A DNA stretch of 63,742 nt, filler included, from Craspedostauros australis (taxonomy: Eukaryota): NCBI GenBank assembly GCA_030167865.1. It is 9 parts of 9 records of this genome, joined end to end, with 100 filler letters (N's around TTAATTAATTAA, not from the genome) between each part and the next. Parts side by side here need not be neighbours in the genome. Positions count along the whole stretch, not along the records: positions 17,906 to 33,962 come from JALAGF010005323.1; 8 more parts are not named here. One strand, given 5' to 3'. The first letter of the stretch is position 1, and every line of letters starts with the position of its first letter. The position numbers and the translations under genes are program-made. The notes under the pieces were generated by a model. It was not told where the DNA came from and made no database searches. It saw only the letters and a program-made list of their open reading frames with translations. Shown here one piece after another: positions 26,700-62,715 of the stretch.

Positions 26700-28207
26700 C
26701 CCGAAGTGATCGAGGTGGACGGCACTACCAAGGAAGAGAAGCGAAGTGGTTCACTCCAGCAACGGCGCTTGAGGAGCGAACGCATCATGCAGTAGAGTAG
26801 CGCAGATGACAGAATCTGAGCAATTAGATGTCAATTCGATATCAATCAGATATTCTTTACATTACTTCTCAAGAGAGCCTTCAGACTCGTATGTAGTGAG
26901 ACCTGTACGGACCTGTACGAGCAGTCGCGGCGCAATCATCATGCAAGGAGATGGCGAGGTATCAAGTCAATGCCGCATCGCACATGCCGAGTCATGGCTC
27001 AGTTCAACGCCAACGCTCCTGTTGAGTGAAAAAGACGAAAGTGGGTTTGCACGTGCCGAAGAGAGTGCCGCAAGCGGAACTACCACGACATCAAATAATC
27101 ACCCGATCATTGTGAAGTCCAGTTGCGCGGCGTTATTATGTGACGGAGAGACGAGATGGTTGTGAATATGAGTGTGAATGTGAGTGTGAATGTCGGTAGG
27201 CGAGGAGCATGGAATATGAGCGCGGTGGAGCCTCCACTGCATTCACACTCATACTACTATTCGTCGCCTTCACCATTGGTGTCTTGTGATACGCCAGTGT
27301 TTGTTCTGTTGTTCGGGCCAGCCATTGGGGCAGCGGATGGGCCAAATAACGAAGCAAGAACCATGCGCTTCGCCAATTGCGCTTTGGTCATGTTTGATGC
27401 GATCGCTTGCCGCCGGCGGAGTCCTTGAGGCTTGATGCGGTCCAACCACTTGGCTGGGTTGGCGGCTGCTCCGGCGTCCAACGCGATGCGGCTCGTGCCC
27501 AGTGCATTAGTGCGATGTGATGCTTCGCTGCCAAGCCGTTGCTTTCCACACCTCAGGACGAATTCACCGCAGAGTGAGAGTCTTGCTCAGCGCTCCAGCT
27601 TGACGACTTGGGGATTGGAATCATCGGACGAAAGATACGCGGAACCGAAGTCGAAGCCAAGAGATCGCGCGCATCTTGCACATGATGCATGGTCCGACCT
27701 CAGCTCTCTCGTCCATCACCTGCACTTGTCCGCGCAACGCGTGTGTCTGGCTTGTTCAGGTGGCGGGATTGAAGCAGCGAGGACCGCGCTCATCATCCCG
27801 GAGGCGTTTGTACCAATAGTCGTACGAGTAGAGGGAAGCGTGCTCGCACGAGTATCGTGGTGGTCGGAGACCATGGTACACATAGCATGCTGTGTTGTGC
27901 TGAGCGTGTCTCTTGGTTGTCGAACGTGAACCATCGAGTCACGAGTGATCTCAACAACAACAAAGAGAACTCGAGTTGGATTTTGAAACGATGTCAATGA
28001 CCCATGCCTCCTCCACCAGTCATTGGTGCAGATCCGTTGCTGTCCGCTTCGGATGCAGAACTGTCATGGATGGCCAGAGGAAGCGGCTGCCATGAATGAA
28101 AGAGATGCCTGACGAATCAACCATTATACTAAATGATGCATTCTATGCTCTACATGACAATATGTTACCTCGACTATGAAGACGCTTGCTCTGCTGCAAT
28201 GCTTGTT

Positions 28208-31200
28208 TCAGGCCAGACGCGAAGGCGGCATGTTCTCCGACTGAGCTGTTAGTTCAACATCCGTGATGCCATCCCCAACGCCCATCAACAGATGCTGGGG
28301 TCCGTGCTCCACAAACCGCGCAGCATCATCCAGGACAGGCTCCCTCACCGCTCCCATCACGCAGCATTTCTGGTGCAGCACACCGCTCACATACGAGCGC
28401 ACCAAGGTCAAGTGCGCAAACGTCTCGCGATGACCCGAGATGACGCACTCGTCAATGACGCATCCATCCGCGATGGTGATGTGCGTCGGCTCGTAGGCGC
28501 GGCAGGCGAAGTAGAGCAGGCGTCCCTCCACCTTGATACCCTGAAAGCGCAGGACGCCGTTCATCATGGGCGTTCCGGATAGCACCCAGGTGAACGACCA
28601 GACAGAGACTGACCAGCAGAACGACTGGTACACCATGTACAGAGCGAGGCACCACGGCGTCGTCCGCTTGTCGGTTCCAAGGAACGTGATGCATTCCAGG
28701 ATGCGCAGCAGCACGGTCCACACCGCGGACTGGACGATGATGCATGCCACGACGGCTGGAACTGCATCGGAGGGCGTCTGCGGCTTGATCAGTCTCATCC
28801 ATAGTTCGTAGGCTGGGATGAAGCTGCCTGCTACCACCACGAGCATGATGCCGTACAGCAGCGTATTCGTCGCCATGNNNNNNNNNNNNNNNNNNNNNNN
28901 NNNNNNNNNNNNNNNNNNNNNNNNNNNACCTTGATACCCTGAAAGCGCAGGACGCCGTTCATCATGGGCGTTCCGGATAGCACCCAGGTGAACGACCAGA
29001 CAGAGACTGACCAGCAGAACGACTGGTACACCATGTACAGAGCGAGGCACCACGGCGTCGTCCGCTTGTCGGTTCCAAGGAACGTGATGCATTCCAGGAT
29101 GCGCAGCAGCACGGTCCACACCGCGGACTGNACGATGATGCATGCCACGACGGCTGGAACTGCATCGGANGGCGTCTGCGGCTTGATCAGNCTCATCCAT
29201 AGTTCGTAGGCTGGGATGAAGCTGCCTGCTACCACCACGAGCATGATGCCGTACAGCAGCGTATTCGTCGCCATGAGCAGCACATGCTCACAAAGTGGCA
29301 AGGGCACGTTGCGCGGATGGCGCTCCGACCGCACTAGATTCTCCATGACGTGCGTTTGTGGTGGCACCACCGAGTTTCGGATCTCCACACCTGGTTCGGC
29401 AACGGTCATGATGCCGATGCTGCTGTCTTCGACGGTGATCTTGGCATACTCGTTGCCATCCTTCACGCACGGGTTGAAGACGGAGATGAAGGACCGTCTC
29501 ACGGAGACGAGGTCCACCTTGGACGGGAAGAATTTCTCTGCGAACACCTTGGATGTCAAATCAATGTCCATGCCAAGAGCCATAAGGATGAGATTCCAGA
29601 TGATGCAGTTGAACGTCAGTCCGTAGAGGATGAAGCACCCAAGCTTGAAGTGAAAGTCACATGCCCAGTCTGCAAACTGCGAAATGACGCTCGTGCTTGC
29701 TTTTCCGGGTCGCTTCTTCCCGATGAGCACCCATTTGAAGAGGATACTTGACACGATGAGGAACACATATGTAAGACCCAGCAATACGATCCAGTATTGC
29801 AACTTGGAGTATCGCCAGATTGGGAGCTCATCGCGGATAAGAATGTCGATGGTCAGAAAGCAAGTGAATGTAAGGTACAGCTCGATGAGCAGCCAGGAAG
29901 TCTTCATGGCGCCCAGCGCGATCCATTGGGAGTCGTTGTTCGGTCCTGCGGCATCCATGGTGCTGCTGTCCTCACTCTGCGGGTTGTCGGCATTGTTCTG
30001 CGGACCCGTCACAGGAACGTTGACATCGACGAACCCAGGATTCCCTTTGATCACAGTGTTGGGAGGTGCTTGGGCACCTTCGACCAGCACTGTGAGGTTG
30101 TGCACATGGCAGGAGGATCCAACCTTCGCGCCGGGGCACAGAGTGCCGTCGACCGTCGCATTGGCTCCGATTTGGATCTTGCGGAACCTCATGCTGGGGC
30201 CCAGCGCGTCGTCTTGCCAAGCGCCGAACATGCGGCATCGGATGGATTGGGTCACTTTGGCATGGGCGCCCATCGTCACGAGATCAAACTCTCGGATGAA
30301 TGAGTCGATACGCGATGATCGATGAACGTTTGCGCCCATGAGGTAGCAAAATACCGTCATCAGTGGCGTTCCCACAACGAAACGGCCAACGAAAATTTCC
30401 CACAAGTGCATCAGCCGATCGACGAACCACCATCGAAGGAAATAGATGCTCGTTTGGTGGATACGTCCCTCTCGATATCTGCCGATGACAATCCATTTTG
30501 CGAGAATGATCTCGATGGTGAGTGTGAGGGACCAGAATGGGATGACGAGTGGGTACCACACCCAAATGTACGGGGAGAAATCGATGAAGAAGAGCACATG
30601 GGTGCGGTTGTCGTTGACCAGCACCCTGCCGATCTCAAATGCAGGAATGATGGGCAACGCGAAGATGAATAGGACGGCAAGCGCGCCGATGGCCTGGATG
30701 AAAGCGATGGTCGGTTGTGACAGAGGCTTCTCGTTTCGTACTGTCTGGGTCCTTTTGAGCGTCGGGAGGTTGGTCGGAAGTGGCTGCCCGATGGATGCTT
30801 CGAGGTAGGTCTTGAGATCAAGAACCGACGGAAACATCTCGAAGCAGTTGGGGGGAATGACGGTGTTGTATCGCCGTGCGAGCGACTGCCAAAGCTCGAG
30901 CTCCATCATGGAGGAAAGTCCGACATCTTTCCATTTGTCTTCGGTCTTGACTTGTGACCCAGTGACATCCTTCACGATCTCGTTGAAGTCCATATGTTTG
31001 ATGTCGAGGTCTTGGATACAGGACTTTCGCAACGAAAGACGCTTCGATTGAGATGTCAGGTCGCCATCGCGTATGCTGAAGAAATTAGACATTCCGATCA
31101 CGTCCAGCACCATCTTCTGCGTTCCATCATGAAGGCGTTCGCGATTGCGTCTTCGTTGAATCTTCCCGCTCGTCGTCTTGGAGATGGTGCGCTCTTCCAC

Positions 31201-33177
31201 AGCCGCTACGGTTGCCGGTGTCAACCCAATCCCTCCCATTACAGCACGCTTGATCTCGTTGCAGACCGCTGCTGCTTCCTCGGCATGAGACGATCGAATC
31301 TCGAACACGATTTCCAACCGCCCATCGTTTCCCGAATCGTCGGACGAGAATGCCGCGACGCAACCTGGACGGACAGCGGGTGATGCATCTTCGACAGCAT
31401 GTTCAATGTCCTGTGGGTAGTAGTTGACGCCGTTGACGATGATGATGTCCTTCTTACGTCCACAGATATAGAGGTAGTCATCTTGGTAGAAACCGTAGTC
31501 ACCGGTACGGAGGTATGTTTTGGCTGGAGCGCCGCTGTTGTCGCTGCCGTTGCTGTTGCTCGTGTTTCCGTCTGTGCTGCTGCCGCTTAACGCTACGATG
31601 TCACCAGCCGTGTCGCCCTGCGACAACACTGCTTGGAATGTTTCCGAAGTGAGGCCAGGTTGGTTGTAGTAACCAGCTGCCACTGACGACCCTGCAATCC
31701 AAACCTCCCCTGTTGAATTGTCTGGCACTGGCTCCCGTGTCTCTGGGTGCACGATGATCACATCGATGGAGTGGTGCAGAGTGTCACGATGGGCGATGGC
31801 CACGAATGGATGGAGATCTTCGTCTTCACGGATGGATGACAGTTGGAATCCTTGCTGATGGCTCACGCCAACCACGTTCTCCGCCAGGCCGTATCCGGTC
31901 ATGAACCAGTCCTTGCGCAAGCCATATGGGCTGAATGCTGTGGAGAACAGTTCAGTCGTATCCAAGCGGATAGACTCTGCAGCGTTTTGGAAACGGAACA
32001 AGCTTGATAGATCGAGGTTGAGGATAGGATCCGAGCGATCGCCTCCTCGTGCCTTGGCCTCGTTGAACTTACGAGTAACCAGTCTGTAGCCAAAGTCGGG
32101 AGCAACCGTGAAATGGCACTTGTGCTTGGAGATGAGATCCATCCAAAGCAATGGATTGCGGATGAAGGAGACCGGTGACATCACGTGTGCACGGAAAGCG
32201 CCCGCCAATGGGACGATGGTCTGCTGGATCAAGCCCAGGTCGTGGTACTGCGGCAACCATGAAAATGTGGTGATGCGCTCGGGCAGCTTACTCATGTCAC
32301 CCAAATCATGTTCAAGGCATTCCAGCCAGCCAATGTGCAACATTTCAACGTTTGCTCTCAATGCATCGTGGGTGACCATCACACCCTTCGGGTTTCCCGT
32401 GCTTCCAGATGTGTACTGGAGGAAAGCAATGTCGGAACCTTCAATGATAGGTTCATCAAAGGATTGCATTGACGAAGAAGCCCGCGAACGACCAGAGATG
32501 GCACGGGACAGAAAGCTCCTGTGCAATCGTTTCGCACTGTTCTTGTGGCTGGCAAACGCATCATGGCGAATGATGCGATCGGTGACTTGAAACTTCACTC
32601 CGCTTGGCCACATGGCGCGGCTCTTCGATACTGGGTTGGCTCGATCGGCGGCACGGAACAGGTTGATGGTTGTCTGGGTGAGAATGAGGACTGGTGAGCA
32701 ATCCTCGACCACCTTGTTCATCTTGGCCAGTGACTTGACGAGTGGAGGTCCCGGAGGATAGACCAGCACGGCAGTCACGCCTGCGCGGAGACATCCCAGA
32801 AAGATGGCGAAGAAATGGAGTCCGAAGTCGTAGCAGAGAACGACGCGGTCGCCCTTGTTGACGCCCCACTTGTTGCGAAGGAGGTGGGCGCACTGTCCCG
32901 CTTCATCCCAGATCTGTTGGAAGGTGTAGTTATTGACTGGCTTTCCCTTCTCATCGTACCAAGTGGAGAAGACGAGGTCGGACTTGAGCTCGACGATGAA
33001 CTTGATGTGGTTGATGAAGGATTTGTTTTGGATGGACTTGTGGATGATCTCATGCTTGGTGGTGATGACGTTGGCCTTGGCGGTGCCAGCTTCGATGTCG
33101 TCGACAGAGACGACACTGTGCTGTGCTTGCACGGCCGTGGAGCTCTTCGGGTCCAAACAATGGGGTTTGTTATCCAT
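28208..33177 (-). CDS. NRPS-like membrane synthetase: fatty acyl-AMP ligase (FAAL) + carrier (ACP/PCP) domain + Pls/PosA-like C-terminal region with three TM-pair/beta-helix modules, ~1523 aa after removing an assembly duplication
   Basis: AFLQYTSGSTGNPKGV, SWLPQYHDLGLI, GYGLAEN, YLRTGD, GRKKDIIIVNGVNYYPQDIE, KTTSGKIQR. Carrier-like DVGLSSM at ~30910. KWIVIGRYREG/YFLRWWFVDRL/LMGANV, KWVLIGK/LGMDI and LSGTP/GIKV/ITIADGCVID..SGH mark the three modules. 28530-28877 duplicates 28928-29275 across a gap, and collapsing it gives one 4572-nt ORF. Confidence 0.88.
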
Positions 33178-33222: not shown

Positions 33223-36196
33223 GTTTGTTCGTCGGTTGGTTGGTTTGTGAGTTTCTGTTCACATGCATTTGCTTTGTGTTTCGTTGCGCTTTTGGGACGC
33301 CTCTCCGGCCAAGCTTTGTGGGCAACGTCGAAACAACTGCGGAGGCAACAGGAGCAGCAAGCGCGAAGAGCTCAATTCGGAGACCCTGTCACGTTCGGAT
33401 GGAGGGCAATACTCGGCTCTTCCCCAGCAACCACGAATGGATTTCGGTGTGGTTGGTGCCTGTGTGCTGAATCTGCCCATGGGACACTCTGCAAATGTCG
33501 AGTGTGACCAACAAACTCATTCCCTAAATAAGAACGACATTTTCAGTGGTGTTTGATATTGAAGTGGTCATCAAGGCCACATTGATAATATCATGATGTC
33601 TTGTGTCATTGTCGAGAGTTTTGTCGGGAATGTCGGGAGTCCGTTCAAGCAAGTTACGACACACGTGAAACCCATTTAGAGTGAAAAAGAGTAAAGATGC
33701 AGATTACTACTCCGACCGGAAAGGATTCAGCCCGAACACAGGCACGGCACGCTCTGTTTTTGTCGTTCAGCCACCCTCAGAAGCTGCGGGGGAAATATAA
33801 AACCACACAATGAAGTGCTGGTCGAATAAAAAGAAGCACACCCGACGGACCCTGATAATATGCGCTTAGAGATTGTCGAGTTAATGCGAGACCATCGTAG
33901 TTGGCACCATGGTTGTGTCCAACCCTCATTTCGTCGCTGTCTGTGTCATCTCCTGGCATATTNNNNNNNNNNNNNNNNNNNNNNNNNNNNNNNNNNNNNN
34001 NNNNNNTTAATTAATTAANNNNNNNNNNNNNNNNNNNNNNNNNNNNNNNNNNNNNNNNNNNNCAGCGCCAGGCTGCCTTGATTGCCATCATCCTTGTCGT
34101 TCTTGAGCATCTTGCTGCACAGCAACACCTCCTCATGTGTGCTGTGGCACACTGCATCCTCGACACCATGCCTACAAGTGTGCGAAGGGGTTGGTACCTC
34201 AGCTCCGGCATCTTCCATCATCAAGTGCTATCTTTCTGGTCTTTGATTTGAGAGCATGGCGACTTCATGGAGTTCTACAACTTCATCGGACTCACCAGGC
34301 CATCGTTCGATNNNNNNNNNNNNNNNNNNNNNNNNNNNNNNNNNNNNNNNNNNNNNNNNNNNNNNNNNNNNNNNNNNNNNNNNNNNNNNNNNNNNNNNNN
34401 NNNNNNNNNNNNNNNNNNNNNNNNNGAGGGCTCGAGTGAGTCATGAACAGCAGCGAGCAACAACAGCCACAGAAACGAGCACGAAAGGTGCAACACAGAG
34501 AAAAGGACATCGGAGCGAAGCAACATGAAACAGACACAATCCGTCAAACATTGCATTAGATACGAACTTTTACCCAACTATCGTCTCCGTTTCAATAGTT
34601 GTAAGTTCGACTACATCGATGTCACTGCCATTGCAACGAAGTATCTGACTTTCAAGTCAGCATTGAAGAACCATTTCTGGTAGGATCTGCCTTTGTTGGA
34701 AGGTCGGAAGAGATCTTGGAGGATGTGGAGAGCAATGGACATGGCAGAGGCTGAAGTTGAGGCAATGGAAGAGCACTCTTGCAAAACAGGGTCTATGGAT
34801 GACAATTGCAACCTGACATACAAAGTGATGGCTCTTGAGAAGAAAGCAAAGGAAGATGTGGAATGCATCAACGATACCCAGAAGCAAAGAAGGCGCGAGT
34901 GGGAAGCTACAATGGCCATTTGTATCATCAAAGCATTGACAATGAGATGATTGGCAAGCAAACGATTGCAGTGAATGCTGCGATAGTTGGGATAGGTACG
35001 TTGAGCATTCAATGAATGAAGGAATGGACACCAGCAGCACAGCCAATGGAGAAAGGAAGACGGGGGAAGCAGGAAAGTGGCAACGCAAAGTGAATAGTAT
35101 GGAGATGANNNNNNNNNNNNNNNNNNNNNNNNNNNNNNNNNNNNNNNNNNNNNNNNNNAAAGGAAGACGGGGGAAGCAGGAAAGTGGCAACGCAAAGTGA
35201 ATAGTATGGAGATGAACTGCGGATGGTGAGGAGCAACACATACGTACAAACATACACATCCATCTGGTATATGGCAGTTGAAAACTGCACTTGGGCAAGA
35301 CACATGTATTTGTGAATGTGTGAAGCAGCAAGAGATGTGCGAAACTGAAGCTGTGGATGTGTAAGCATACAGCCCCATTCAGCGAGGTCAAGTATCATCC
35401 TGCCAATTGTGAATCGGACAACATGACATTTTAGCAAGCTATGTGGCATGTTGTCCATTAGGGTTAGATATATTTAGATAGCTCTTACAACACAAGTACA
35501 TGGCTTGTGCTCACTGTGGACAGACATGGTGCCGTCGCTTTTGGTCGATATCAGACTGCGATGGTATCCAACAGTGTGGGTCGTGATGTTGTGACGGCTT
35601 CGGTGGTGCGTTGATTCCTCACATTGTAGACGATTGGGCTCTGTTGTGTGCTTCCTCCCTTATGTGTGTTGTGTCAAGTAGCACAGGGTTGTTTGTGGCA
35701 TCCCTACACGTTCACATCCACATTCACGGCAACAGCAACACTTGCGAATACTATGCAGCATAATATTATATAATACAATAGAGCACAGTGACTCATCCTA
35801 TGGTATGAGAAGTATACTATACTCTCCACAATATAATAGGATGCACATAATGCTTATCTTAACAATCCGCAAATGACGACATGACAACCCTGGACGGGGT
35901 GATACGAGGAAAATGGTCGTGGAGAGAAATGGTGATGTATGGAAGGAATCAATGGATTGACGGGCACTGATTTAGTCTTGGGGGCAGATTTGGATACGGG
36001 ACTGATGGTCGTGACTTGAAATCGGGGTGAACGAGGCTGACCAGTTATGAAATTATGACCCTTACAACCACCTCCAGTTATCACCGTTGACAACTTCCCC
36101 TAGAGCACTTGTGAAGGGGTCTATTGTCGATTCGGTTTCGGTTAGTCGTGAAGTCTTGATGCGCATATCCCTAATGATTTTGGCCTGGTACTGGCC

Positions 36197-39877: not shown

Positions 39878-40121
39878 NNNNNNNNNNNNNNNNNNNNNNN
39901 NNNNNNNNNNNNNNNNNNNNNTTAATTAATTAANNNNNNNNNNNNNNNNNNNNNNNNNNNNNNNNNNNNNNNNNNNNAGTCAATAACCGTTCGCGCCATC
40001 TCTAGGGTATCTAATTTAGACATGTTCGCTTTCACTTCTCCCGAAGAGCGTCACATTTTGGCCAAGAGTGTGACAACACATCATCGGTTCCTTTTTTGTT
40101 GTTGCATGATGTGTTCCCTCC

Positions 40122-41441
40122 ATGCTATATGTCATGCTATACTCGCTGCTCCTTCAATTCGTCTGTGTTCATCGCACCTTCGCACACACAGCTCCTCTGC
40201 GCGTTCGATCACTACATACCATCGTTGTCATGGTCAATCGTAATTGGAGTACTGTTCCCGAGCGGCAGGCATTGGAAGAAGCCAGCGCTCGATTCGAGGC
40301 TGCCATCGCTCAGCTTGCAGACATCGACGTCCAACGTCTGGATTATGCAGGAGTCGTCATTTTGGTTCAGCACTATAGCAACATTGTTGCATTGGGCCGT
40401 CATGTGCTACAAATGCAGCAACTCTACCTCACTCCATTGGGACCTCCTCCCATGTTCACCAACAGGAACATTGCCATTGCGGAACTGGACGAACGCGAAA
40501 GTGTTCGTCACTTTCGTTTCCGTGTGCGTGATCTTCAACGTCTGGCTGACCGTCTCTGGCCCAAGTTTCAGGCAGTGTCCGGTGAGGCAGATCCTGCATG
40601 CATTCAAGTGAAGAGTCGATACACGGTATCATACGAAATGGGATTGCTTGTCATGTTGTTCCGTCTGGCACATCGCGGACGGCTGTGTGACATGGAACAG
40701 AGATTCAGCATGGACAGCAACCGCATTTCCAGTATTGCCTCCACTTTCTACTCCTACTTCTATGCCGTTGGCATGCCCTACCTGAGCGACATCGGTTTGT
40801 TTCATACTCGATTCCCCGACTATGCGGAGAACAATCACCGTCTCACCCACGGCTTGGTGGACGATGTGTTCGCTTACGTCGACGGCACGTTTTGGGAAAC
40901 CTGTCGTCCCTCAGAGAATCAAGAGGACCTCTACTCTGGCTATAAACGCGGTCATGGGCTGCACTATCAAGGAATCGTTGCGCCAGATGGGTTGCTCATT
41001 CACTACTTTGGGCCGATTGCAGGTGCTCGCAGTGACGGGTACATGTTCCAGCAAAGCAAAATCGAACAGCGACTGGAGGCTCTCATGCCGTTGGATGAGA
41101 ACAATCCTCCATATCGTCTCTACGGTGATGCAGCATATCCTANNNNNNNNNNNNNNNNNNNNNNNNNNNNNNNNNNNNNNNNNNNNNNNNNNNNNNNNNN
41201 NNNNNNNNNNNNNNNGTCGGGACGCATCTGTGTTGAGTGGGCATTCAAGGAGATCACGAAGAATTTCCCCCTCGTCAGCGTTCGCAACGCCAACAAAACG
41301 CTACAGAATCCTCTCACACTCATTCATTTTGTTGCTGCGTTCCTCGCCAACATCCATTGCACCATGAATGGCAATCAGCAGTCTGCACGGTACCAATCGC
41401 ACAAGCTGACATTCGAAGAATACATCGACCTGATCCCATGA
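40122..41441 (+). CDS. PIF/Harbinger (HARBI1-like) DDE transposase, start uncertain, internal gap
   Basis: FAYVDGT, YSGYKRGHGLHYQGIVAPDG, GARSD, LYGDAAYP, RICVEWAF, plus an HTH-like region LLVMLFRLA..LCDMEQRF. Confidence 0.9.
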   Translation: MLYVMLYSLLLQFVCVHRTFAHTAPLRVRSLHTIVVMVNRNWSTVPERQALEEASARFEAAIAQLADIDVQRLDYAGVVILVQHYSNIVALGRHVLQMQQLYLTPLGPPPMFTNRNIAIAELDERESVRHFRFRVRDLQRLADRLWPKFQAVSGEADPACIQVKSRYTVSYEMGLLVMLFRLAHRGRLCDMEQRFSMDSNRISSIASTFYSYFYAVGMPYLSDIGLFHTRFPDYAENNHRLTHGLVDDVFAYVDGTFWETCRPSENQEDLYSGYKRGHGLHYQGIVAPDGLLIHYFGPIAGARSDGYMFQQSKIEQRLEALMPLDENNPPYRLYGDAAYPXXXXXXXXXXXXXXXXXXXXXXXXXSGRICVEWAFKEITKNFPLVSVRNANKTLQNPLTLIHFVAAFLANIHCTMNGNQQSARYQSHKLTFEEYIDLIP

Positions 41442-41871
41442 TCATGCAAACAGTTAGAATTAATGAGGTACATATACATGTAATACGTATTGGACTAACT
41501 ATTATGTAGTACTCATGGCGCGCGGGCACTTGTGTTGTGTGTGCTGTGCTGCGTACAATGAGCAAATGCTGGGGAATGGTTTTCTGATGGAATGGGTGTG
41601 GACGCGGAAGGAAGCATGCGGCTGTGCGCACAAGGGCTTCAGCGCGTCGGCTTCTCCACTTGGTTTTGCTCTGTATGCTGCTGTGGGGTGCTTGTGCCAT
41701 GAAGAGAGGAACGAATGAATGGATGCATGCATGCATTGAAGAATGGATCGTTGAGTTGGATCGACGAATGTAACGACAAATGGGTGGGTTGATGTGGTAC
41801 GGAATGTGAGGGATTGCGGGAAAGAAGGTATGAAATGTGGAAATACGCAGAGAGGAAAGAATGGGTGAGTA

Positions 41872-43416
41872 TCATTTTCCCGCGTCGTCGTCGTCGTCGC
41901 CGTCGCCGTTGCGGCTGCTGCTGCTGTTCTCGTTGTCGTTGTTGTGTTGAGCTTTGGACATGACGTGGACGAGAGACCTGACGTCGGACGAGAGTTTCAT
42001 TTGTGACTCGCGCAACTGCGAGGTCTCGTGCTGCACCCGGTTCCTATCCTCCTCCAGACGGCGGTTCATGTGGAGTATCAGTTGCTGCTGATTCATCACG
42101 AGCTGGAGGAGGTTGTTGTTGTTGTTGGTGGTGGTGGTGTTGACATCGTTGGAAGCCGCTGCCCCCACAGTTGGAGCGATTGGAGAAGCGGCGAGCGATG
42201 ATGCAATCGGAGAATTTTCTCCGCGTTCCACGCGAATCGGAGGCGTGGCCGTAGCGAGCCATGCTTGAAACTGACGCTGAGTTTCGTCCAGCTTCTCCAG
42301 GAGACTGACTGTGCACTGGAGCTGCTGCTTGGCGTTTCGTGCTTGCTTCGGAGCAGTCACCACTTCCGCAGAAGACAAACTCGAGGTCGCGTCGTCGCTG
42401 TTGCTCGCCACCACATTCTGTTGCCGCGCCGTTGCTGCTGCTCTGCGCACAGCCACATTCTGTTTCCGCGCCGTTGCTGCTGCTCCAGCTTGTGTCTGCG
42501 TTTGAGGAGGGCGCAGTCCTAGCATGCGATGCTGCTGCCTTGCAGTGATCCTCTTGCGCCCAGCGATTCTTGTTTGCGATGCGATGGCATCATCAATGTA
42601 CTCCTGACGCTCCTGCTGCAGGGCAGTGAGGTCGTCCAGCCACAATTTGACACTCTCAGCCATGNCGCTCCTGCGAGGATGGGTGTGGTTGTACAGACCT
42701 GTGTACTTCATGAGATTTTCGAATCTCCCCTTCAGCCCTTTCTCTTGTGGGACAGTGGGGAAGACTGTCGAATTCTCAACATGCACCGCGTTGCGGATCG
42801 CACTCCATGCAACTCCAATTGGCGGTATCCAAGGCTTTTTGAGAGTCCTGCTGACGACGTCGATGAGGATTCGGTCGCATGGCTGGGGGTTCACGAGCCA
42901 TGGGAAGTGGTCCACCTTCCCCTTGAGAATGTAGTACATGGGAGGGAAGAATCTTGGTCTGGATTTGCGGACGATGGGAGGGGTTGGCATGTTGCCATCA
43001 CTGGCTGTCGCCACCGCAGATGATACGGAAGGTGCAGGCGCCTTCTTGCGACGGTACGCCCGCTTCTTGTTGTTCCTGCTGCTGCTGTTGCTGTTGCTTG
43101 GTGGCAATGGTTCCGCCGGAGGCTGATGGGTGACAGATGGCGAAGCGCGAGGCTTGCCAGACTTGGCCATCGCGTCGACGTCGTCGCCGTTGCTCGCGTC
43201 GAAGGGAGCACCAACGTTGGCTTGAGGCTGCGCCAGTGTGAACCTGTAAGTGCAGCGTTCGAAACCAGGTGGGAGTTTCTCATCCTTGCCCAACACTGAT
43301 GGTGGGAAGACGAAGGTCGCCGGTGCGCCAGTCCTTCCACTCGGCGTGACCTCGCTGTCGCTGCTGGTCTCCGACGGAGCAATGGGCGGAGCCGCGGGAG
43401 GAGGGGAACCGTCCAT
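41872..43416 (-). CDS. Harbinger ORF2-like accessory protein (possible Myb/SANT-like DNA-binding region, coiled coils)
   Basis: Long ORF convergent with the transposase. AWSAIRNAV...GLKGRFENLMKY resembles a trihelix/Myb-like motif. NLS-like KKRAYRRKK. Confidence 0.6.
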   Translation of the reverse strand: MDGSPPPAAPPIAPSETSSDSEVTPSGRTGAPATFVFPPSVLGKDEKLPPGFERCTYRFTLAQPQANVGAPFDASNGDDVDAMAKSGKPRASPSVTHQPPAEPLPPSNSNSSSRNNKKRAYRRKKAPAPSVSSAVATASDGNMPTPPIVRKSRPRFFPPMYYILKGKVDHFPWLVNPQPCDRILIDVVSRTLKKPWIPPIGVAWSAIRNAVHVENSTVFPTVPQEKGLKGRFENLMKYTGLYNHTHPRRSXMAESVKLWLDDLTALQQERQEYIDDAIASQTRIAGRKRITARQQHRMLGLRPPQTQTQAGAAATARKQNVAVRRAAATARQQNVVASNSDDATSSLSSAEVVTAPKQARNAKQQLQCTVSLLEKLDETQRQFQAWLATATPPIRVERGENSPIASSLAASPIAPTVGAAASNDVNTTTTNNNNNLLQLVMNQQQLILHMNRRLEEDRNRVQHETSQLRESQMKLSSDVRSLVHVMSKAQHNNDNENSSSSRNGDGDDDDDAGK

Positions 43417-43794
43417 GACGAATAGAGGGAAGAGACTATGCGTCAGAAACGACACGTGTTGTGGTCTGTGGCAGTGATCAGAATGTCTCGTGCAAGATGT
43501 TGGTCGAAGTGGAGCATCGAGGTGTGATCATGAGGTGGGTTGTGACAGATGATTGTCTTGGAATGAGAGAATCGAGATGAGAGAATCGAGCGATGGCGAT
43601 GTGATGGTGATGTGATGGCGATGTGATGGATGATGTTTTTCTCTTTGTTGTTCCAAAACGAACGCAAAAGTCTACGATGGCGGCCAATGTAGACAGATGT
43701 GGAGGACAAGAAGGACTAAACTAGAACGAAATAACACAACATGATTGGCCAAAGTCTATTATCCATGTGGAAGTGATACATTTTCCGGGACTCT

Positions 43795-50210: not shown

Positions 50211-51129
50211 AGCAGATGCCAGAGCTTGGCGGCAGGCGAGACGATGAACCTTCAACGCTTGCGAGTACGGAGCCAAGTCTGCAGTAGAACCCTTCCTGCA
50301 ATGTTCTGTCTTCGATCACTTGTGAGCACGTCAAAGATCGGGAACGTAGAGTCAGTTTGAACTGTGCGATGGAGCAATCTGCCCTCCCATTTCAGTATCA
50401 TACGCTGGTTCACATGATGTCGCCAGTGGTGGAGGTATTCAACGATGGTGTCGGCATCAGCACCGACATCACCAACATGCCTGTGTTGTTCGGAGTTCCA
50501 GTTCGTTCTTTTTGTGTGACCCAAACGTGCGTTCGGGTTTGGCGCCAACCAACTCGCATCTCAGTCGATTGAGTCAATCAATTCTGTTCGTTTTGTGGTC
50601 ACACGAATCGGTGGCAGAGGTTCGGTTTAGAAGTTCGGTTCGCTTTCAGAGGCGGCAAAACGACTTCTTTGTCGGGACTTTCTCGGTGCTTCTCTCTTTG
50701 TCAACAGGCAGACTAAACGGGGCCTACGGTTTAATAGGTATTATACATAAATATTCAATTGTGTCCTGTAAATCAGATTGTTCGATTTGGTTTCTGTTCG
50801 ATATCAGAGGAATATGTTCGTCTATGTAACTTGAGGAATATCTATTAATAAATATAGTTGTGCTATATGTTCAGAATGCTGCAAAGGAAGCTAGATATGC
50901 ATCAATGTGTTTCACTCCGTCGACAACACAAGGACGAGGCACCGGAGGCGAACTCCTCAACAGGACTAATGCGTACTCCGTAGAGATCAATGCTGTTCGT
51001 TGGACAACACCGAACTACTATCTGCAGAAATTCGACAGAAGAGCAGATCCAGGCGTGACATGCTTGTTCTCCATCAAAATGATGGGAGAGTACCAATACA
51101 ATGTATAACAGTCTCATACTTTGATTTAC

Positions 51130-52215
51130 TCACAAGTCGTCACATGATCGATGGTCCAAGTAGTCATTGATGACACCCTCGAGTAGTTGCTGGTCTTCCA
51201 AAGGCAACCCAGCCGCCAGCCGGATCTTTCGCATTCGTAACTTCTTTGTGTGCAAATGCAGAGAGCAGCTTTTTACATTCGAGTGTTTGCCGTGATGCAG
51301 CGTAAGACTTGCTCGGACCAGCTGGTTGGTGCTGCCTTCCATGAAGCTAATCCTCTTGCCGAAATACTTCCGTGTCAAAGACCACGTGTGCTTACCGATC
51401 GTGATGTGGGTCGATACGAAGGGATTGACAAACATGAATTGGCCCATGAAGCCGCTATACACCGCTAGAACGAGGGGACGCGAAATCGGTCCCACCACAG
51501 CAAACCGCCCCGCGTGCAAGTATACACCAATCAGCATCGAACGCACTACCTTTCCTCTTGGCGGAATGTCCAGTACCAGCGTCCCAGCGTTTGTGAAACG
51601 AATGTCCGAGATGGATCTGGTCATTTTGACACGTTCGATGGTCGACCCGTGAGTCTCTGGAGTTTGTGGATGCACCGTCTCGGCGTGCGGTACGTACGGT
51701 GCAGCATCATCGTCTGATTCTCCCTTAGGCTTCAACAGCCCCCATCCTGCAAGTTCATCACGAACCGCGGGATCGGGAGACATCGGATGAAGATCTTCCC
51801 GCGAGAATAACGGAGCCGGAGAATACGTGGAGGCAAAAGGCTCGCTCCGAAGATGGTCTCGTCTTTCTTCCTGCGTGGGAAGTTGCCATGAAGGCTGGAT
51901 GTCACCAAAAGTGCTGCTGCTCTCGTCATCGTAGTCACAGTCGATAGCGTTGTTGATGTTGTGAATTTCATCAACAGTGATACTGTTGTCCTCACCAGAG
52001 CGTTCACCAAAGAAATCGTAAGCCGCCATTTCATCCTTCTCTCTTTTGAGAGCGAAACGGGAGCTGTTGCCGCCGCCACTGCGACGCACACGATCGAGAC
52101 GATGCCATGTCACCCGCTGTCGCCCAAATCTGTCACGGAGAGGTGACAGAGGCGAGAAGGCCACGGTGGAATGCAGCACAGCGGCGGTCGAAGTCAGCAC
52201 AACTGTGACTCTCAT
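51130..52215 (-). CDS. Putative plastid-targeted membrane-associated hypothetical protein, paralog 1 (361 aa)
   Basis: Signal peptide MRVTVVLTSTAAVLHSTVA-FSP (ASAFAP-like), Arg-rich transit-like segment, C-terminal GTLVLDIPPRG...VNPFVSTHITIG.HTWSL domain. Confidence 0.72.
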   Translation of the reverse strand: MRVTVVLTSTAAVLHSTVAFSPLSPLRDRFGRQRVTWHRLDRVRRSGGGNSSRFALKREKDEMAAYDFFGERSGEDNSITVDEIHNINNAIDCDYDDESSSTFGDIQPSWQLPTQEERRDHLRSEPFASTYSPAPLFSREDLHPMSPDPAVRDELAGWGLLKPKGESDDDAAPYVPHAETVHPQTPETHGSTIERVKMTRSISDIRFTNAGTLVLDIPPRGKVVRSMLIGVYLHAGRFAVVGPISRPLVLAVYSGFMGQFMFVNPFVSTHITIGKHTWSLTRKYFGKRISFMEGSTNQLVRASLTLHHGKHSNVKSCSLHLHTKKLRMRKIRLAAGLPLEDQQLLEGVINDYLDHRSCDDL

Positions 52216-52669
52216 CTTGATCGTTCCTTTTGGCAGTTTCGCACGAGCTCTCTCTCTCTCTCTCTGCCCGAATACAGCTGATTGCAACTGACTATGACCA
52301 CACAGCCTCCTTCGGTACAACCACACCCGTGAAATGACAACACAGAATGCAAGAACACAGCCAACAAAGCCACACAAAGAGGCTTCTTGACCCCTGGAGC
52401 ACGGGAAAATCCCAGTTGAGGTCGTATCGATGCGATCGGTTCATTTCGGAACTTCCACGACACAAACCGAAAAGGCGAAGACAGAATTCGCACGAAATCG
52501 TATCTTGGACAAATCGGACTACTCCAAATTCATTTTTCCTCCTTTTGCATCGTTAGCTGTTGCTGCGAATGATGTGGAGGAAGGAGATTGTATGAGGGGT
52601 GCTTGTCATCGCTGGTACTAATTGGACCGAACTTCGCCTCCCGCCTCCATTTACCATGATGATGATGCT

Positions 52670-53020
52670 TCACGACGGCGCAATGCACAGAGTTGTGGAA
52701 GTCTGGCTGGCATTGTATGTTGCGCTTGGAATCTCGCCTGCGTAGCCAGTTCCCAGAAGCAGCTGCTGCGCCATCATGAGTATGTCGGGACATTGCGAAA
52801 AGCTCCCCATTGCTCTCTTCGCAGTGATGTGGAGACCACAGTTGACTGCATGGTTGCGGACCTTCCAGTAATCGATCTTAATATCACCATTCTGATTCTG
52901 ACCTGGCGCAGTCTCTCGCAAGATGTCGAAGAGGATGCCCAAGCCATGGTGGTGGATGTCCAGGCATTCGGGGAAGTTGTGCAACAACCGGCAGATCATG
53001 CCGACGCCACCAAGCTGAAT
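52670..53020 (-). pseudogene. 5'-truncated duplicate of the 3' end of the ARM-repeat gene
   Basis: GGVGMICR.LHNFPECLDIH.HGLGILFDILRE...LC.APS is nearly identical to the C-terminus of 56462..57991. Similarity stops at ~53020. Confidence 0.85.
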
Positions 53021-54961
53021 CTACTAGGTGCAAAATTGCCTGTTTGAGTTTCTCCGTCGCCATCCAGAAGTAGCTCTCAAAGGAAGAAAGCCCCATCTTG
53101 ATCTTGCTTTTGTGTGTGAGTAGGTGAGTCATGGTGGTGAAAGCAGGCCTTCCCACTGGGTTGTTGGTCGTAGATAAGTACATGTTGAATAATTGTTTGA
53201 TGGTTGTGCTTCCACAATCGAACACCAGAATATTTTCAAATTTGACACCACCATACTGTACTGTGTGACTCAAACCTGCCTTGTATGTTGCAGTGGTCAT
53301 GAGGAAAGATGTCACACCAGACAGGTCACAGGCAGGCACACAATACTGGAGAACTCTTGGCAAGATGATCTTGCCATGGCTGAACATGTCAAAGGCATGC
53401 TGTAAGGTCATTAGTTGACTCCGGGTCATATTAGCGCGTGCGGGCTTGACATGAATACGTTGTTCCTCTGGAAGAGTCTCCACATGGCAAGACAGGATTG
53501 CGGAGCTGTTAGTGAATGACGCAGACGCAGCAAGCACAGCTCTGGATGCGTTAGCCACTGTCTTTTCTCCCCTCACACATAGGGTGTATAGATTTGGACT
53601 GAGTGTAGTTGGTGGAAGGTCCACGCAAGTGCGGAAAAACGCCACCACCTGTTGCATCTGGCGAGTTGGCAATTCCTCGTGAGGGAGCAAGACACCCCAG
53701 AGTGCAGTTGCAACAGTAACCCACACACGTGTTACATTCCACTATGTGCGCCTGTCGCACTGGTCGCCAAGCACGAATCCCATGGCAGGCATGGAATTAA
53801 ACATGGTCACGTTGAAGTGATCCGTGAGATCCTCCATCATGCGGATCACAGCACCACATCTCCAGCTTCCCTCCTTGGTTGTATCACACCCAAACTTGCT
53901 GTCCCTCCTGTCCCTGCCAGCGCGCATCTGTTCCTCCTTGTCGTCCATGTAGGTGCTGTCACTGTCATTGGAGGGATCCGTGTATCCCCTAGCAACAACA
54001 GTGTTGCAACGCCAGGGAAGTCTCGCTGGTGGGGTTGGCTCCACAGGTGGTGCAATGTCAGGTGCAGCAGGCCAGGGTGGCACATTCACGGCAACACTCA
54101 CCAACTCACCATCACTGATGCCTCGTCCTTCCGAGCGCACCCTGACATTGGAGTTTTTGTAGGCGCCTCCGTTGTTGTCGAGGACGTGAACGTACACATG
54201 CAGCTCGCAAGTGTGCGCATGCGTACTGTTCTGGATGAGGCTGCCGTCCGCTGCAAGCATCAGCTTCACATCGATCACTTGCATGATGGTGCTTGGCTTC
54301 CCCAATGCAGCAGACAGCTTGTCAGGCAACAGCTGTTCAGCAGCAGGCAGCAAGTTCCTCTTCAAATCAAAGGGAGGAGCAGGCGCATGGAGAGTAGAAC
54401 ACGGTTTCTTATGGGGGAGGGGCTGGCATCCTTGGAGAGGGCCTTGGCAGCAGCAAAGGTAAACATGATGTGGTTGTTGGTGTAGAGTAGTGTTGTTTGC
54501 AAGTTGGATGTGATGAACTGCTCTGGTCTGAGACAGGGTGAGGAAGGAGACGATGCGATGAACAGTGAACCATTCAGGACAACAAACATCAACTACTACT
54601 GCTACCACTATACTACTAGGGCGAGCACAAGCATGGAACACAACAGCGAGTGCGTATGGCATTGGCGAGGAAAGTTGTGAAATGGAGCGAAAGTGTGGCG
54701 ATGATGTGTGAATTTGTGACAGGATGTCGATGATGTTGGATGTGTGATGTGTTGTGTGTGACGTGTTCCGACGATTTGTGTGTTGTTGTTACGCACAAAA
54801 TGTGAGATCGTGTGGCACATGCTAACGTGTAATTAACGCGTACCAAACGACCGACGCCTTCGGAAGCAAGTCCGTGACTGAGTACCATAGGATAAATAAT
54901 CCGGAACATCATAAAACTTTCTGAGAAACAGCAACTATAACAGTCTCGTACTTTGATCTAC

Positions 54962-55969
54962 TCACAAGTCGTCACATGATCGATGGTCCAAGTAGTCATT
55001 GATGATACCCTCGAGTAGTTGCTGCTCTTCCAAAGGCAATCCAGCTGCCAGCCGGATCTTTCGCATTCGTAGGTTCTTTGTGTATAAGTGCAGATGGCCT
55101 TCCACATCACCTGAGAACATCGGGGACGTTGTCTCAAGACTTGCTCGGACCAACTGGTCGGTGCTGCTTTCTGTGAAGCTAACCGTATTCCCGGAATACT
55201 TCCGTGCCAAAGACCACGTGTGCTGACCGATCGTGATGTGGGTCGATACGAAGGGATTCACAACCATGAATTTGGCCATGAGACCACCGCATATCGTAGG
55301 AAGGAGGTAACGCGGAAGCGACCCCACCACAAAAATCCCCGCCATGCTCAAGCTTCCACCAATCATCACCGAACGCACTGTCATTCCTCTTGGCGGAATG
55401 TCCAGCACCAGCGTCCCAGCGTTTGTGAAACGAATGTCCGAGATGGATCTGGTCATTTTGACACGTTCGATGATCGCCGCGATGCGCGGTGGGAACAATG
55501 GATCATTGTCATCAACGTCGTCATCAACATCGTCACCAACACCGTTATCAACATCATCATCAACGCCGTTACCAACATCGTTACCAACGTATACGCTGTC
55601 GTGGTTGTTGCCGACGTCGACTTTGACCTTGTTGAAGACGTCGCGGATGTCATCAAAGACGTCGCGGGTGCCCATGATAACGGCGTTGCAGGCGCAGAGG
55701 GAGAAGAGGATGCATACGAAGACAGCGGCAGCCAGGAACTCGGGGACGTCTTCAAAAGTGAGCCTGTCGTATTCCCCGGGACCTTCATCATTGTCTTCTT
55801 CGAGAGCGAAACGGGAGCCGCCGCCACCACCACTGCAGCGTGCACGATCGAGACGATGCCATGTCACTCGCTGTTGCCGAAATCCGTCATGGAGAGGCAA
55901 CAGAGGCGAGAACGCCACAGTGGAATGCAGCACAGCGGCGATCGAAGTCAGCACAACTGTGACTCTCAT
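54962..55969 (-). CDS. Putative plastid-targeted membrane-associated hypothetical protein, paralog 2 (335 aa)
   Basis: Same N- and C-terminal blocks as paralog 1, with a different central segment. Confidence 0.72.
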   Translation of the reverse strand: MRVTVVLTSIAAVLHSTVAFSPLLPLHDGFRQQRVTWHRLDRARCSGGGGGSRFALEEDNDEGPGEYDRLTFEDVPEFLAAAVFVCILFSLCACNAVIMGTRDVFDDIRDVFNKVKVDVGNNHDSVYVGNDVGNGVDDDVDNGVGDDVDDDVDDNDPLFPPRIAAIIERVKMTRSISDIRFTNAGTLVLDIPPRGMTVRSVMIGGSLSMAGIFVVGSLPRYLLPTICGGLMAKFMVVNPFVSTHITIGQHTWSLARKYSGNTVSFTESSTDQLVRASLETTSPMFSGDVEGHLHLYTKNLRMRKIRLAAGLPLEEQQLLEGIINDYLDHRSCDDL

Positions 55970-56461
55970 CTTGATCGTTCCTTTTGGCAGTTTCGCGCGT
56001 GCTCTCTCTCTCTCTCTCCGTTGATGGAAGCCACGTCCCTTCCTCTCTCTCTCTCTCTCGCCGAATGCGGCTGATGGCAGCTGACTATGACCACACAGCC
56101 TCCTTCGATACAACCACACCCGTGAAATGACAACACAGAATGCAAGAACACAACCAACAAAGCCACACAAAGAGGCTTCTTGACCCCTGGGGCACGGGAA
56201 AACCCCAGTTGAGGTCGTATCGATGCGATCAGTTCATTTTGGAATTTCCACGATGCGAACCAAAAAGGCGAAGACAGAATTCGCACGAAATCGTATCTTG
56301 GACAAATCGGACTACTCCAAATTCAGTTTTCCTCCTTTTGCATCGTTAGCTGTTGCTGCGAATGATGTGGAGGAAGGAGATTGTATGAGGGGTGCTTGTC
56401 ATCGCTGGTACCAATTGGACCGAGCTTCGCCTCCCCCTCCATTTACCATGATGATGATGCT

Positions 56462-57991
56462 TCACGACGGCGCAAGGCACAGAGTTGTGGAAGTCTGGCT
56501 GCCATTGTATGTTGCGCTTGGAATCTCGCCTGCGTAGCCAGTTCCCAGAAGCAGCTGCTGCGCCATCATGAGTATGTCAGGGCATCGCGGAAAGCTCTTC
56601 ATTGCTTTCTGCGCAGTGACGTGGAGACCACAGTTGACCGCATGGTTGCGGACCTTCCAGTAATCGATCTTGATGTCACCATTCTGATTCTGACCCGGCG
56701 CAGTCTCTCGCAAGATGTCGAAGAGGATGCCCAAACCATGGCGGTGGATATCCAGGCATTCGGGGAAGTTGTGCAACGACCGGCAGATCATTCCGACGCC
56801 ACCAAACTGGATGAGTATGGCCTTGTGCTGGGCGTTGTCGTAGCACAGCGTGAAGATGGACCACAGAGACCACTTGACGATGCCTCGATGCAACCTGTAC
56901 CAGTTGGCGGTGTCGATGATGACGCCCATCCCACCAGCCTCGCAGACATGTCGTGACAGCGTCGTAGCCAACGAACGATCGCCCGATCCGTCGCCGTCGT
57001 CGTCCGCCAGCACGCCCAGCAGCAGCGCCCCCTTGCGCAATGATTCTGCAAGAATCTCCTCCTGGCTCTCATCGCGCTCGTTCCTGGCCTTGTCCAACAA
57101 CCGTCTCATGCTCTGGATGATCCCCTTCACCCCGAATTGCCGGGGGTTCGAGATGCACCTTGTCCGAACGGCGGTGTTCTTTGCGATCAGAGAAAGGAGG
57201 AACAGCGCAGTTCTGATCACGTTGACGTCTTCGGGGTACTTCCGAATGGAACTGCAGCATGCTTCCTGTGCAACCAGGGCAAGACCGTCTTCCATCTGCG
57301 GCATGCTGCCGTGGTTGTTTCGTATGGAATCGGCGACCCTTGCGCTCAATTCGTGCATGATGGCCAGGCACTTCATTGTGTTGCTGCGCGCGTGGGTTGC
57401 ATCGGTTGCTTCGTTCGTCACATCCGTACTCGCGATCTTGTCCGCATCAGCGCTCTCCAGTTGATCGTCTTGAAGCTTCTCAAGTTGTTCGATGAACTGC
57501 GAGGGCTGCTGCAGCTGAGACAGCTTCATTTCGCGTCTCATGTCCAGCACCGACGCATCATCTTGTCCCGCTGACATGGCAGCATGCTGCATCCATGCAT
57601 CCTCTCCCACGTCCTTCCCTGCATCGTCAGAGATGTCATGAATGAGATAGTCACCATCATCGTCCAGCAACAAGGATGCGACGAGCATGAAAAGACCAAA
57701 GATGAAGGACACGGAGCCGGACCAAACCCAACCTCTGGTCACCATCATGGATCCTCCCACCACAACGAGTGTCGGGAATGCGACCTTCTCAACGAGAGAG
57801 GGTGGTGATGGTGATTGTGATGGTGGAGGAGATTCGCCCTCCAATCGAAGCTTGGGATCGTTGTTCTGGAGGCCACGAAGACCTGCCTTCGCTCTGGATT
57901 GCGCCATCGCTTCCATGGCCTCTATCGTCTCCAGCATCTCCATCGTCTGCTTCCTTTCTTCGCCGTTGGTCTTCTTTCCGTGTCCTCTCAT
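56462..57991 (-). CDS. Membrane-anchored armadillo-like helical repeat protein (5' end may be incomplete)
   Basis: Two N-terminal hydrophobic segments, then ARM-like units (KYPEDVNVIRTALFLLSLIA, EAGGMGVII, QFGGVGMICRSLHNFP). Confidence 0.72.
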   Translation of the reverse strand: MRGHGKKTNGEERKQTMEMLETIEAMEAMAQSRAKAGLRGLQNNDPKLRLEGESPPPSQSPSPPSLVEKVAFPTLVVVGGSMMVTRGWVWSGSVSFIFGLFMLVASLLLDDDGDYLIHDISDDAGKDVGEDAWMQHAAMSAGQDDASVLDMRREMKLSQLQQPSQFIEQLEKLQDDQLESADADKIASTDVTNEATDATHARSNTMKCLAIMHELSARVADSIRNNHGSMPQMEDGLALVAQEACCSSIRKYPEDVNVIRTALFLLSLIAKNTAVRTRCISNPRQFGVKGIIQSMRRLLDKARNERDESQEEILAESLRKGALLLGVLADDDGDGSGDRSLATTLSRHVCEAGGMGVIIDTANWYRLHRGIVKWSLWSIFTLCYDNAQHKAILIQFGGVGMICRSLHNFPECLDIHRHGLGILFDILRETAPGQNQNGDIKIDYWKVRNHAVNCGLHVTAQKAMKSFPRCPDILMMAQQLLLGTGYAGEIPSATYNGSQTSTTLCLAPS

Positions 57992-58110
57992 CTCAACATG
58001 ATCGCTCTAGNNNNNNNNNNNNNNNNNNNNNNNNNNNNNNNNNNNNNNNNNNNNTTAATTAATTAANNNNNNNNNNNNNNNNNNNNNNNNNNNNNNNNNN
58101 NNNNNNNNNN

Positions 58111-60216: not shown

Positions 60217-60317
60217 NNNNNNNNNNNNNNNNNNNNNNNNNNNNNNNNNNNNNNNNNNNNTTAATTAATTAANNNNNNNNNNNNNNNNNNNNNNNNNNNN
60301 NNNNNNNNNNNNNNNNA

Positions 60318-62501: not shown

Positions 62502-62715
62502 NNNNNNNNNNNNNNNNNNNNNNNNNNNNNNNNNNNNNNNNNNNNTTAATTAATTAANNNNNNNNNNNNNNNNNNNNNNNNNNNNNNNNNNNNNNNNNNN
62601 NGAATGGCATAGACTCACCTCAATCGCGGCAATCGTGCATGACACTGACGATGCCCTCCAGAAGGTGCATGACGACGGAGAGGAACTTGCATGGGTATGG
62701 ATTTGGTCGGATAGA

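Follow-up and report, generated by a model that had tools for sequence, protein, structure and literature searches.

The terminal domain of PosA, a synthetase of the ε-poly-L-lysine (Pls) type, has been modeled as three repeats, each combining a pair of helices with a β-helix, and a likeness to the β-helix acyltransferases has been proposed for it (PMC10522769). In the latter enzymes, the catalytic histidine is carried on a loop that leaves the β-helix (PMC3046976). The fatty acyl-AMP ligases, or FAALs, are characterized, in the sections of PMC8460268 drawn upon here, by W224, M231, F279, a helix extending from T252 to P259, and a pocket entrance lined with proline and threonine; in the Escherichia coli enzyme (EcFAAL), the entrance to this alternative pocket is formed by T83, P107, P226, and T252.

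Here we describe a gene from the diatom Craspedostauros australis in which a FAAL-type head, a carrier domain, and a Pls-type tail follow one another in a single predicted polypeptide. It lies at positions 28208..33177, on the minus strand, of a 63,742-nucleotide window (the whole stretch of DNA analyzed, joined from nine records of assembly GCA_030167865.1; JALAGF010005323.1 supplies the part in question). The product contains 1523 residues when a 348-bp assembly overlap is counted once, on the basis of the open reading frame (ORF), a script join, and alignment to a homolog. By sequence comparison the gene is no singleton: it belongs to a large family that is spread over algae and other protists. 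The protein is best read as catalyzing carrier-dependent acyl transfer at the membrane to a separate acceptor, a reading to which we assign an even chance.

Head, carrier, and terminal domain

The adenylation domain is delineated by approximately residues 60 to 690 (31108..33000; this and all coding features below are on the minus strand) from Pfam, PDB, and NCBIfam searches and from a tree. Its four best PDB sequence matches are all FAAL domains (E 1e-67 to 1e-69). The order of the matches is the olefin-synthase FAAL (E 8e-69) and the L. pneumophila FAAL, followed by FadD32, FadD23, and the E. coli FAAL, with acyl-CoA ligases and ordinary nonribosomal peptide synthetase (NRPS) domains far weaker. 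The best NCBIfam models are likewise FAALs, every one of them scoring under its cut-off. An ordinary acyl-CoA synthetase was considered and rejected, given that the NCBIfam FACL models reach E 1e-36 or worse versus 1e-80 for the FAAL models. A first-pass annotation of this DNA had proposed a FAAL-type head and had quoted adenylation and carrier motifs; the assignment holds, and all of the motifs are found in the ORF.

The P-loop is formed by residues 255 to 265 (32383..32415), and the FAAL motif WLPQYHDLGL by residues 307 to 316 (32230..32259). When 83 is added throughout to the published numbers, the hallmark residues become W307, P309, L314, P335, P342, and F362. Thus, the residues that block the CoA pocket (W307, L314, and F362) and the FAAL-specific helix (P335 to P342) are present. 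Within the 64 adenylation domains of the diatom clade, W307, P309, P335, F338, P342, F362, and P142 are retained in 62-63, position 314 being the exception. The pocket entrance keeps P142, P309, and P335. The equivalent of EcFAAL Thr83, at the entrance to the carrier-arm pocket, appears to be Phe118 (32824..32826). We infer this residue alignment from the Phe118-Pro142 spacing, which is the same as that between Thr83 and Pro107, and the offset is consistent with the range aligned to 3PBK.

The carrier (ACP-like) domain extends from residues 733 to 792 (30802..30981) on the basis of Pfam, the PDB, and a homolog model. Its match to PP-binding (PF00550) is weak, with an E value of 0.019 and 15.6 bits versus a cut-off of 20.8; the carriers of paralogues P0150 and P0154 score above the cut-off. 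When a 76-residue carrier segment was searched against the PDB, all 15 matches at E≤10 were acyl carrier proteins (ACPs) or proteins of fatty acid synthases and polyketide synthases (PKSs), none being significant singly (best E 0.066). In the homolog model, the carrier superimposes on known carrier proteins with Z scores of 8-9.5, the DEBS ACP giving a Z of 9.5 and a root-mean-square deviation (rmsd) of 2.2 over 73 residues. A carrier fold is present, with the serine opening helix 2. This residue, Ser756 (30910..30912), is the predicted phosphopantetheine site and is aligned in 73 of 73 family members; indeed, a tryptophan and the serine are invariant in the carriers of the 73 diatom-clade proteins. 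That a carrier lacking its usual aspartate follows the FAAL, as proposed at first pass, is thus borne out by the modeled fold and by the conserved serine.

The tail contains three repeats. Repeat 1, a helix pair plus a β-helix, is encoded at 30028..30729 (profile and alignment) and displays Arg982 where repeat 3 has a histidine. Repeat 2 is encoded at 29308..29925 (hydropathy, alignment, and homolog model), and repeat 3 at 28355..29295, across the assembly overlap (profile and alignment). The 597-residue part of the protein upstream of the gap matches the NCBIfam model TIGR02353 with an E value of 5.7e-20 and 71.2 bits versus a cut-off of 423.1, and the last 223 residues give 12 bits. Against a profile of 90 Pls-like matches the tail scores 152 bits. 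The Pls-type tripartite C-terminus proposed earlier is therefore supported by TIGR02353, far under its cut-off as that match is.

Structural statements on the tail rest on a model of homolog P0024 rather than of the window's own protein. This homolog is 30% identical and has a complete tail; its model, built with a 90-row alignment, has a pLDDT of 90.7 and a pTM of 0.89. It reveals three repeats, each comprising a helix pair, two core helices, and a β-helix. The three repeats of membrane helix pair and β-helix claimed at first pass are accordingly seen in the P0024 model, and a hydropathy scan of the window protein recovers all but one of the six expected helices, the second of pair 1 falling below threshold, and marks an extra segment at residues 1179-1201. 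A fold search with the model returned hexapeptide acetyltransferases first (Z 10.1, rmsd 3.4 over 146 residues), with CysE and γ-carbonic anhydrases also among the matches. PDB sequence searches with the window tail, a bacterial relative, and a repeat-3 profile yielded no full-length Pls, and repeat 3 found no relative at all. Since the helices come in pairs, all three β-helices should lie on the same side of the membrane as the FAAL and the carrier, and export is therefore not implied; the export coupling put forward at first pass is optional.

His1450 (28430..28432) is a candidate for the catalytic base, and it is common to Pls-like proteins in the alignment. It is conserved in 70 of 73 diatom-clade proteins (two gaps and one Thr), in 89 of 90 Pls-like matches, and in 7 of 14 other FAAL-headed proteins (four gaps). 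Among 44 distant eukaryotic relatives, chosen from 121 further matches, 40 carry a histidine in the last repeat. In P0345, the histidine is found in repeat 1 rather than in repeat 3; such a shift would be expected if the site is pseudo-symmetric. The equivalent residue of the model, H785, opens a hairpin leaving the β-helix.

Relatives and the proposed reaction

A tail tree was calculated with FastTree from 122 rows, for which 35 of the 90 Pls-like matches were kept. A 73-row diatom clade with a support of 100 joins other FAAL-headed proteins, and together they are separated from the proteins with NRPS heads; two rows with a FAAL head are placed on the NRPS side, and several branches are long. 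Thirty of the 73 rows are Seminavis robusta proteins, all with the tail; for this species, 16 FAALs are counted in the portion of PMC12820801 considered here. In a head tree of 137 rows, brown-algal proteins form the sister group of the clade that holds the window protein, and both lie in a larger clade that also contains Nannochloropsis and pelagophyte PKS heads. Fifteen diatom-type rows are placed elsewhere; heads have thus been swapped. The FAAL-carrier-Pls layout is present as well in Ectocarpus, Scytosiphon, Ostreobium, Aureoumbra, Chrysophaeum, Salpingoeca, and Amorphochlora; brown algae and pelagophytes are represented, as are a choanoflagellate and a chlorarachniophyte.

None of the 90 lower-scoring matches listed carries a FAAL motif, and 85 carry an NRPS motif. 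Likewise, 29 bacterial genome loci, located with diatom-derived words and limited to the best matches, include none of the FAAL type, 26 with an NRPS motif, and 3 that are cut short. The earlier expectation that similar layouts exist elsewhere thus stands for other algae; in bacteria, no FAAL head was found among the relatives retrieved, and a bacterial fusion may still exist beyond these best matches. A recent bacterial transfer, raised at first pass as a matter for phylogeny, was rejected as unsupported: the FAAL is nested, together with proteins of brown algae and Nannochloropsis, inside a clade of ochrophytes, and no such fusion was found among the bacterial relatives retrieved. A search from P0208 aimed at land-plant relatives returned seven proteins, none named as plant. 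The plant HemY-FAAL-catalase proteins presumably also contain β-helix or Pls-like parts; our searches did not retrieve such proteins.

The tail is not confined to this layout. It ends PKS or NRPS assembly lines in P0345, P0301, P0358, P0296, and P0322. In P0345, it is preceded by FAAL-ACP-KS-AT-KR domains; in P0301 from Stygiella, it terminates a PKS whose last module is DH-ER-KR; and in P0358 from Mastigamoeba, it closes a multi-module NRPS. To judge from these positions, the tail acts in the manner of a general release domain for acyl groups bound to a carrier. Some relatives have as an insert an FAD oxidoreductase (P0019, P0025, P0141, P0150, P0241, and P0294, with a hydrolase as well in P0141), an acyl-CoA dehydrogenase, a P450 (P0297), or a KS; others add a DOMON/copper monooxygenase (P0328) or a reductase. 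P0189, P0288, and P0184 are FAAL-Pls proteins among those with an acyl-CoA dehydrogenase or a terminal reductase. In some loci of relatives, the FAAL frame is broken: at 2800-2925 of L009 the break is intron-sized, near 3735 of L005 another occurs, and L005, L006, and L008 show a frameshift or short intron. The L009 and L005 breaks offer 15 and 31 possible GT-AG pairs, such that an intron is only hinted at.

Taken together, the family probably attaches acyl groups to an acceptor at the membrane or strings them into a polyester. The hydroxy or amino fatty acid, the polymer, and the wall or adhesive coating suggested at first pass are conjectural. The enzyme would resemble a one-module NRPS anchored in the membrane. 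The FAAL would first adenylate a carboxylic acid, which is probably a fatty acid that is short, medium, or modified; the family of the head is plain, and the substrate is predicted. The acyl group would then be passed to a phosphopantetheine arm on Ser756, where fold and serine are seen and the modification is presumed. Finally, the three β-helices would form a pseudo-trimer on the cytosolic face, in effect a β-helix acyltransferase in one chain, and His1450 would activate an acceptor hydroxyl or amine held by the helix bundle, leading to an ester or amide. Both the chemistry and the acceptor in this last step are putative. Paralogues with differing pockets and added oxidase domains would thereby generate an array of acylated products. 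Because a plain fatty acid offers no second group for polymerization, and because the window gene encodes no tailoring domain according to a Pfam scan, a single transfer is favored over polymerization.

Several observations weigh against such a transfer. To our knowledge, the characterized relatives of the tail are polymerases only. The fold scores are middling (Z 8-10) and include γ-carbonic anhydrases, and a common fold is no proof of function. The tail model is that of a 30%-identical homolog, and the placing of the histidine in an active site is putative. Activity and product are predictions from sequence and that model. In the head, the FAAL insertion region measures 46-47 residues; the median for 53 other FAALs is 59, and Pls adenylation domains have about 32. 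Phe118 appears to reproduce the loading-blocking T83F substitution, which in the E. coli FAAL almost abolishes acyl transfer to ACP (PMC8460268); a Phe occupies this site in 56 of 64 diatom-clade heads versus Pro in 42 of 53 other FAALs. Lastly, the usual carrier Asp is absent, the residue preceding Ser756 and its equivalents being S in 38, T in 30, A in 3, V in 1, and D in 1 of the 73 proteins, and the window carrier departs from the canonical G-x-D/H-S motif.

The loss of the Asp is, in these alignments, a family trait rather than decay, because only one of the 73 diatom-clade proteins retains it while the Ser is invariant. The N-terminal ACP of Pks13, which is loaded by a FAAL, also lacks it as far as is known. 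A working carrier is further supported by a sister protein, P0161, in which a FAAL of the same diatom-type clade and the same carrier motif are fused to a type III PKS.

An alternative that we consider possible, if rather doubtful, is a polyester or estolide synthase that joins hydroxy-acid monomers head to tail in the manner of Pls and passes the chain into the membrane or across it. Homology of the tail to Pls extends over all three repeats, with the histidine common to both, and domains of relatives could provide the hydroxyl group, namely the KR module of P0345, the P450 of P0297, the DOMON/copper monooxygenase of P0328, and the FAD oxidoreductases. Such hydroxylases and the KR-only module fit a polyester, whereas the fully reducing last module of P0301 fits a single transfer. 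The window gene itself, however, encodes no hydroxylating domain in the Pfam scan, most Pls-specific residues (for example the Q, E, D, R, and K beside the histidine) are absent, and no conserved neighbor gene was seen in the longer loci of relatives when their ORF lists were inspected by eye. It is conceivable, albeit unlikely in our estimation, that protists turned the polylysine machine into a carrier-dependent polyester synthase of the membrane, with a FAAL to load hydroxy fatty acids, fused oxidases or PKS modules to tailor these, and the pseudo-trimer to polymerize them. If so, the 30-member expansion in the benthic Seminavis and the brown-algal copies would build an unrecognized cell-surface or adhesive lipid polymer, and the Pls tail would serve NRPS and PKS lines generally as their release domain, working with one catalytic His.

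Phe118 and the missing Asp might together mean that the carrier arm does not work in the usual manner, such that the acyl-adenylate is passed on directly or rerouted and the carrier is structural. Two independent departures do coincide here, but Ser756 is invariant, and the same Phe is shared by brown-algal relatives whose carriers have the canonical GxDS and by a FAAL-ACP-KS-AT-KR loading module from Nannochloropsis that must load its ACP. In addition, several pelagophyte-type PKSs have GxSS or GxTS carriers ahead of KS domains. We thus give this little credence; since the Phe occurs in such relatives, the lineage may instead have reshaped the pocket entrance.

An amino or aryl acid as the monomer, with a polyamide or small amide as the product and a chemistry nearer to that of true Pls, is similarly improbable. 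Pointing in that direction are matches to McyG at E 4e-38, a structure titled as a phenylalanyl-adenylate complex, which indicates that FAAL-like domains can adenylate phenylalanine. Among bacterial-type FAAL rows, furthermore, 18 of 20 have Gly at position 318, versus 7 of 64 diatom rows, in which Tyr, Phe, and others vary; this suggests a shorter pocket and gives no more than a hint of shorter and varied substrates. Fatty-acid FAALs score far higher, however (E 1e-68), and the head is distant from Pls adenylation domains in the tree.

Returning to membrane acyl transfer, comparison of the FAAL-headed and bacterial branches leaves one histidine as the obvious catalytic candidate for bond formation in the Pls terminal domain. 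The family provides a function to pursue for many unexplained diatom FAALs and points to a class of algal acylated products or polymers not known before. A fatty-acyl version of Pls would be of interest to biopolymer engineers.

Gene integrity and genomic setting

From an ATG at 33177, the reading frame is open for 1416 codons up to a scaffold gap of 50 N (28878..28927). The gap is flanked by two copies, at 28530..28877 and 28928..29275, of the same 348 bases, which are identical apart from three single Ns in the second. As assembled, the frame is lost in the second overlap copy. Zero-mismatch overlaps occur at four of the nine gaps of exactly 50 N in the window, namely the gene's own and those at 19181, 35109, and 46416. 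The repeat is therefore best read as an unmerged contig overlap, a habit of the assembler. The first-pass annotation had collapsed a 398-bp overlap to obtain 1523 residues; the length of the protein stands, and the overlap proper is 348 bp with 50 N besides. When the overlap is counted once by script, the sole stop is terminal, at 28208, and the joined protein aligns with homolog P0003 as one unbroken alignment over residues 53-1523, in keeping with the unbroken ORF claimed earlier. A true tandem duplication was rejected on the identity of the copies save for the Ns and on the matching overlaps at the other gaps. Note that automatic annotation of the scaffold would miss His1450 because its codon sits 3' of the assembly gap.

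The gene is likely intronless, to judge from its sequence. A Ser/Asn/Gly insert of ~30 residues at 518-552, which most of 17 homologs lack, could be an in-frame intron. One read run, which contains 0.31 of the words searched, was placed on 27600-29130, and its coverage was limited to a repeat at 27600-27922, with none on the gene. This repeat, downstream of the gene, was covered by four diverged contigs at a depth of up to about 300 in that run.

That the gene is broken by a real duplication with a frameshift, or lies on a bacterial contaminant, is very improbable: the join lacks covering reads in the one run and the second copy is out of frame as assembled, but the copies are identical save for Ns, three other gaps are alike, and the gene sits among eukaryotic neighbors. 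Its 3' part shares an N-free 9.6-kb piece with ankyrin and BTB genes. Its GC content at third codon positions (GC3) is 0.69, that of nine neighbors being 0.62-0.77. Among the matches listed, proteins of Seminavis robusta and Chaetoceros tenuissimus are the closest named relatives; in the three best Atlas clusters, most members with a phylum assigned belong to Bacillariophyta. The gene is genuinely eukaryotic, no contaminant, and in all probability intact; its simplest reading from these features is as a diatom nuclear gene, as had been supposed.

The window also encodes a class III cyclase, a family C G protein-coupled receptor, a DDE transposase, and Copia-like remains. The transposase (40110-43527) is of the DDE_Tnp_4 (Harbinger) type and faces an ORF of 551 codons on the opposite strand, which may be its partner gene. 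The Copia-like pieces (58063-62549) include gag-pre-integrase, SH3, and protease-like segments, and a 405-bp repeat within them, at 58285 and 59083, may be another assembly overlap. One gene is present twice, at 51104-53017 and 54936-56809, in segments that are 84-95% identical. At 33963-34062 and seven similar sites, 44 N, 12 bases, and 44 N follow one another; at the first of these, the 12 bases are a TTAA-type palindrome, and the whole is probably a linker from scaffolding.

Comparison with known systems

A literature search by title and abstract opening, mostly outside subscription journals, returned no description of a FAAL-carrier-Pls protein; the supplements of PMC12820801 and PMC8460268 may list the domain order. 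In the parts of these two papers considered, some supplements lying outside them, a Pls-type tail is not mentioned for eukaryotic FAAL-like proteins. Those proteins (plant HemY-FAAL-catalase, the S. robusta FAALs, and DIP2) are likewise unusual fusions with no function assigned in these parts (PMC8460268, PMC12820801).

With the bacterial FAALs and FAAL-ACP loading modules (the olefin-synthase FAAL 7R7E, L. pneumophila FAAL 3KXW, FadD32, and E. coli FAAL 3PBK), the window protein shares the family, the CoA-blocking residues, the FAAL-specific helix, and a fused carrier. It differs in having a putative membrane transferase after the carrier, rather than a KS or condensation domain, and in its shorter insertion, the Phe at the proposed Thr83 site, and a bulky and variable residue 318. 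The left-handed β-helix acyltransferases, such as maltose/galactoside O-acetyltransferase, CysE, and NeuO, have in common with the modeled tail the β-helix fold and a protruding loop, at the start of which the conserved His appears to lie. Unlike them, the window protein contains three unlike copies per chain, a single His, a membrane anchor, and a donor that is presumably bound to the carrier rather than to CoA.

The closest likeness in layout is to Pls and PosA, which have the same adenylation-carrier-terminal domain order, three helix pairs and three β-helices, homology over the whole tail, and a His in repeat 3. The head of the window protein, however, is a FAAL and not an amino acid-activating domain of the NRPS type, and its carrier motif is GxS/T-S versus GGHS in Pls. 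It scores 71 versus 423 bits with TIGR02353, occupies a separate branch of the tail tree, and has conserved residues of its own family, for example R962, E963, R982, and H1176. It is Pls-like in its proposed working, but by its type of head and its score below the TIGR02353 cut-off it is no Pls.

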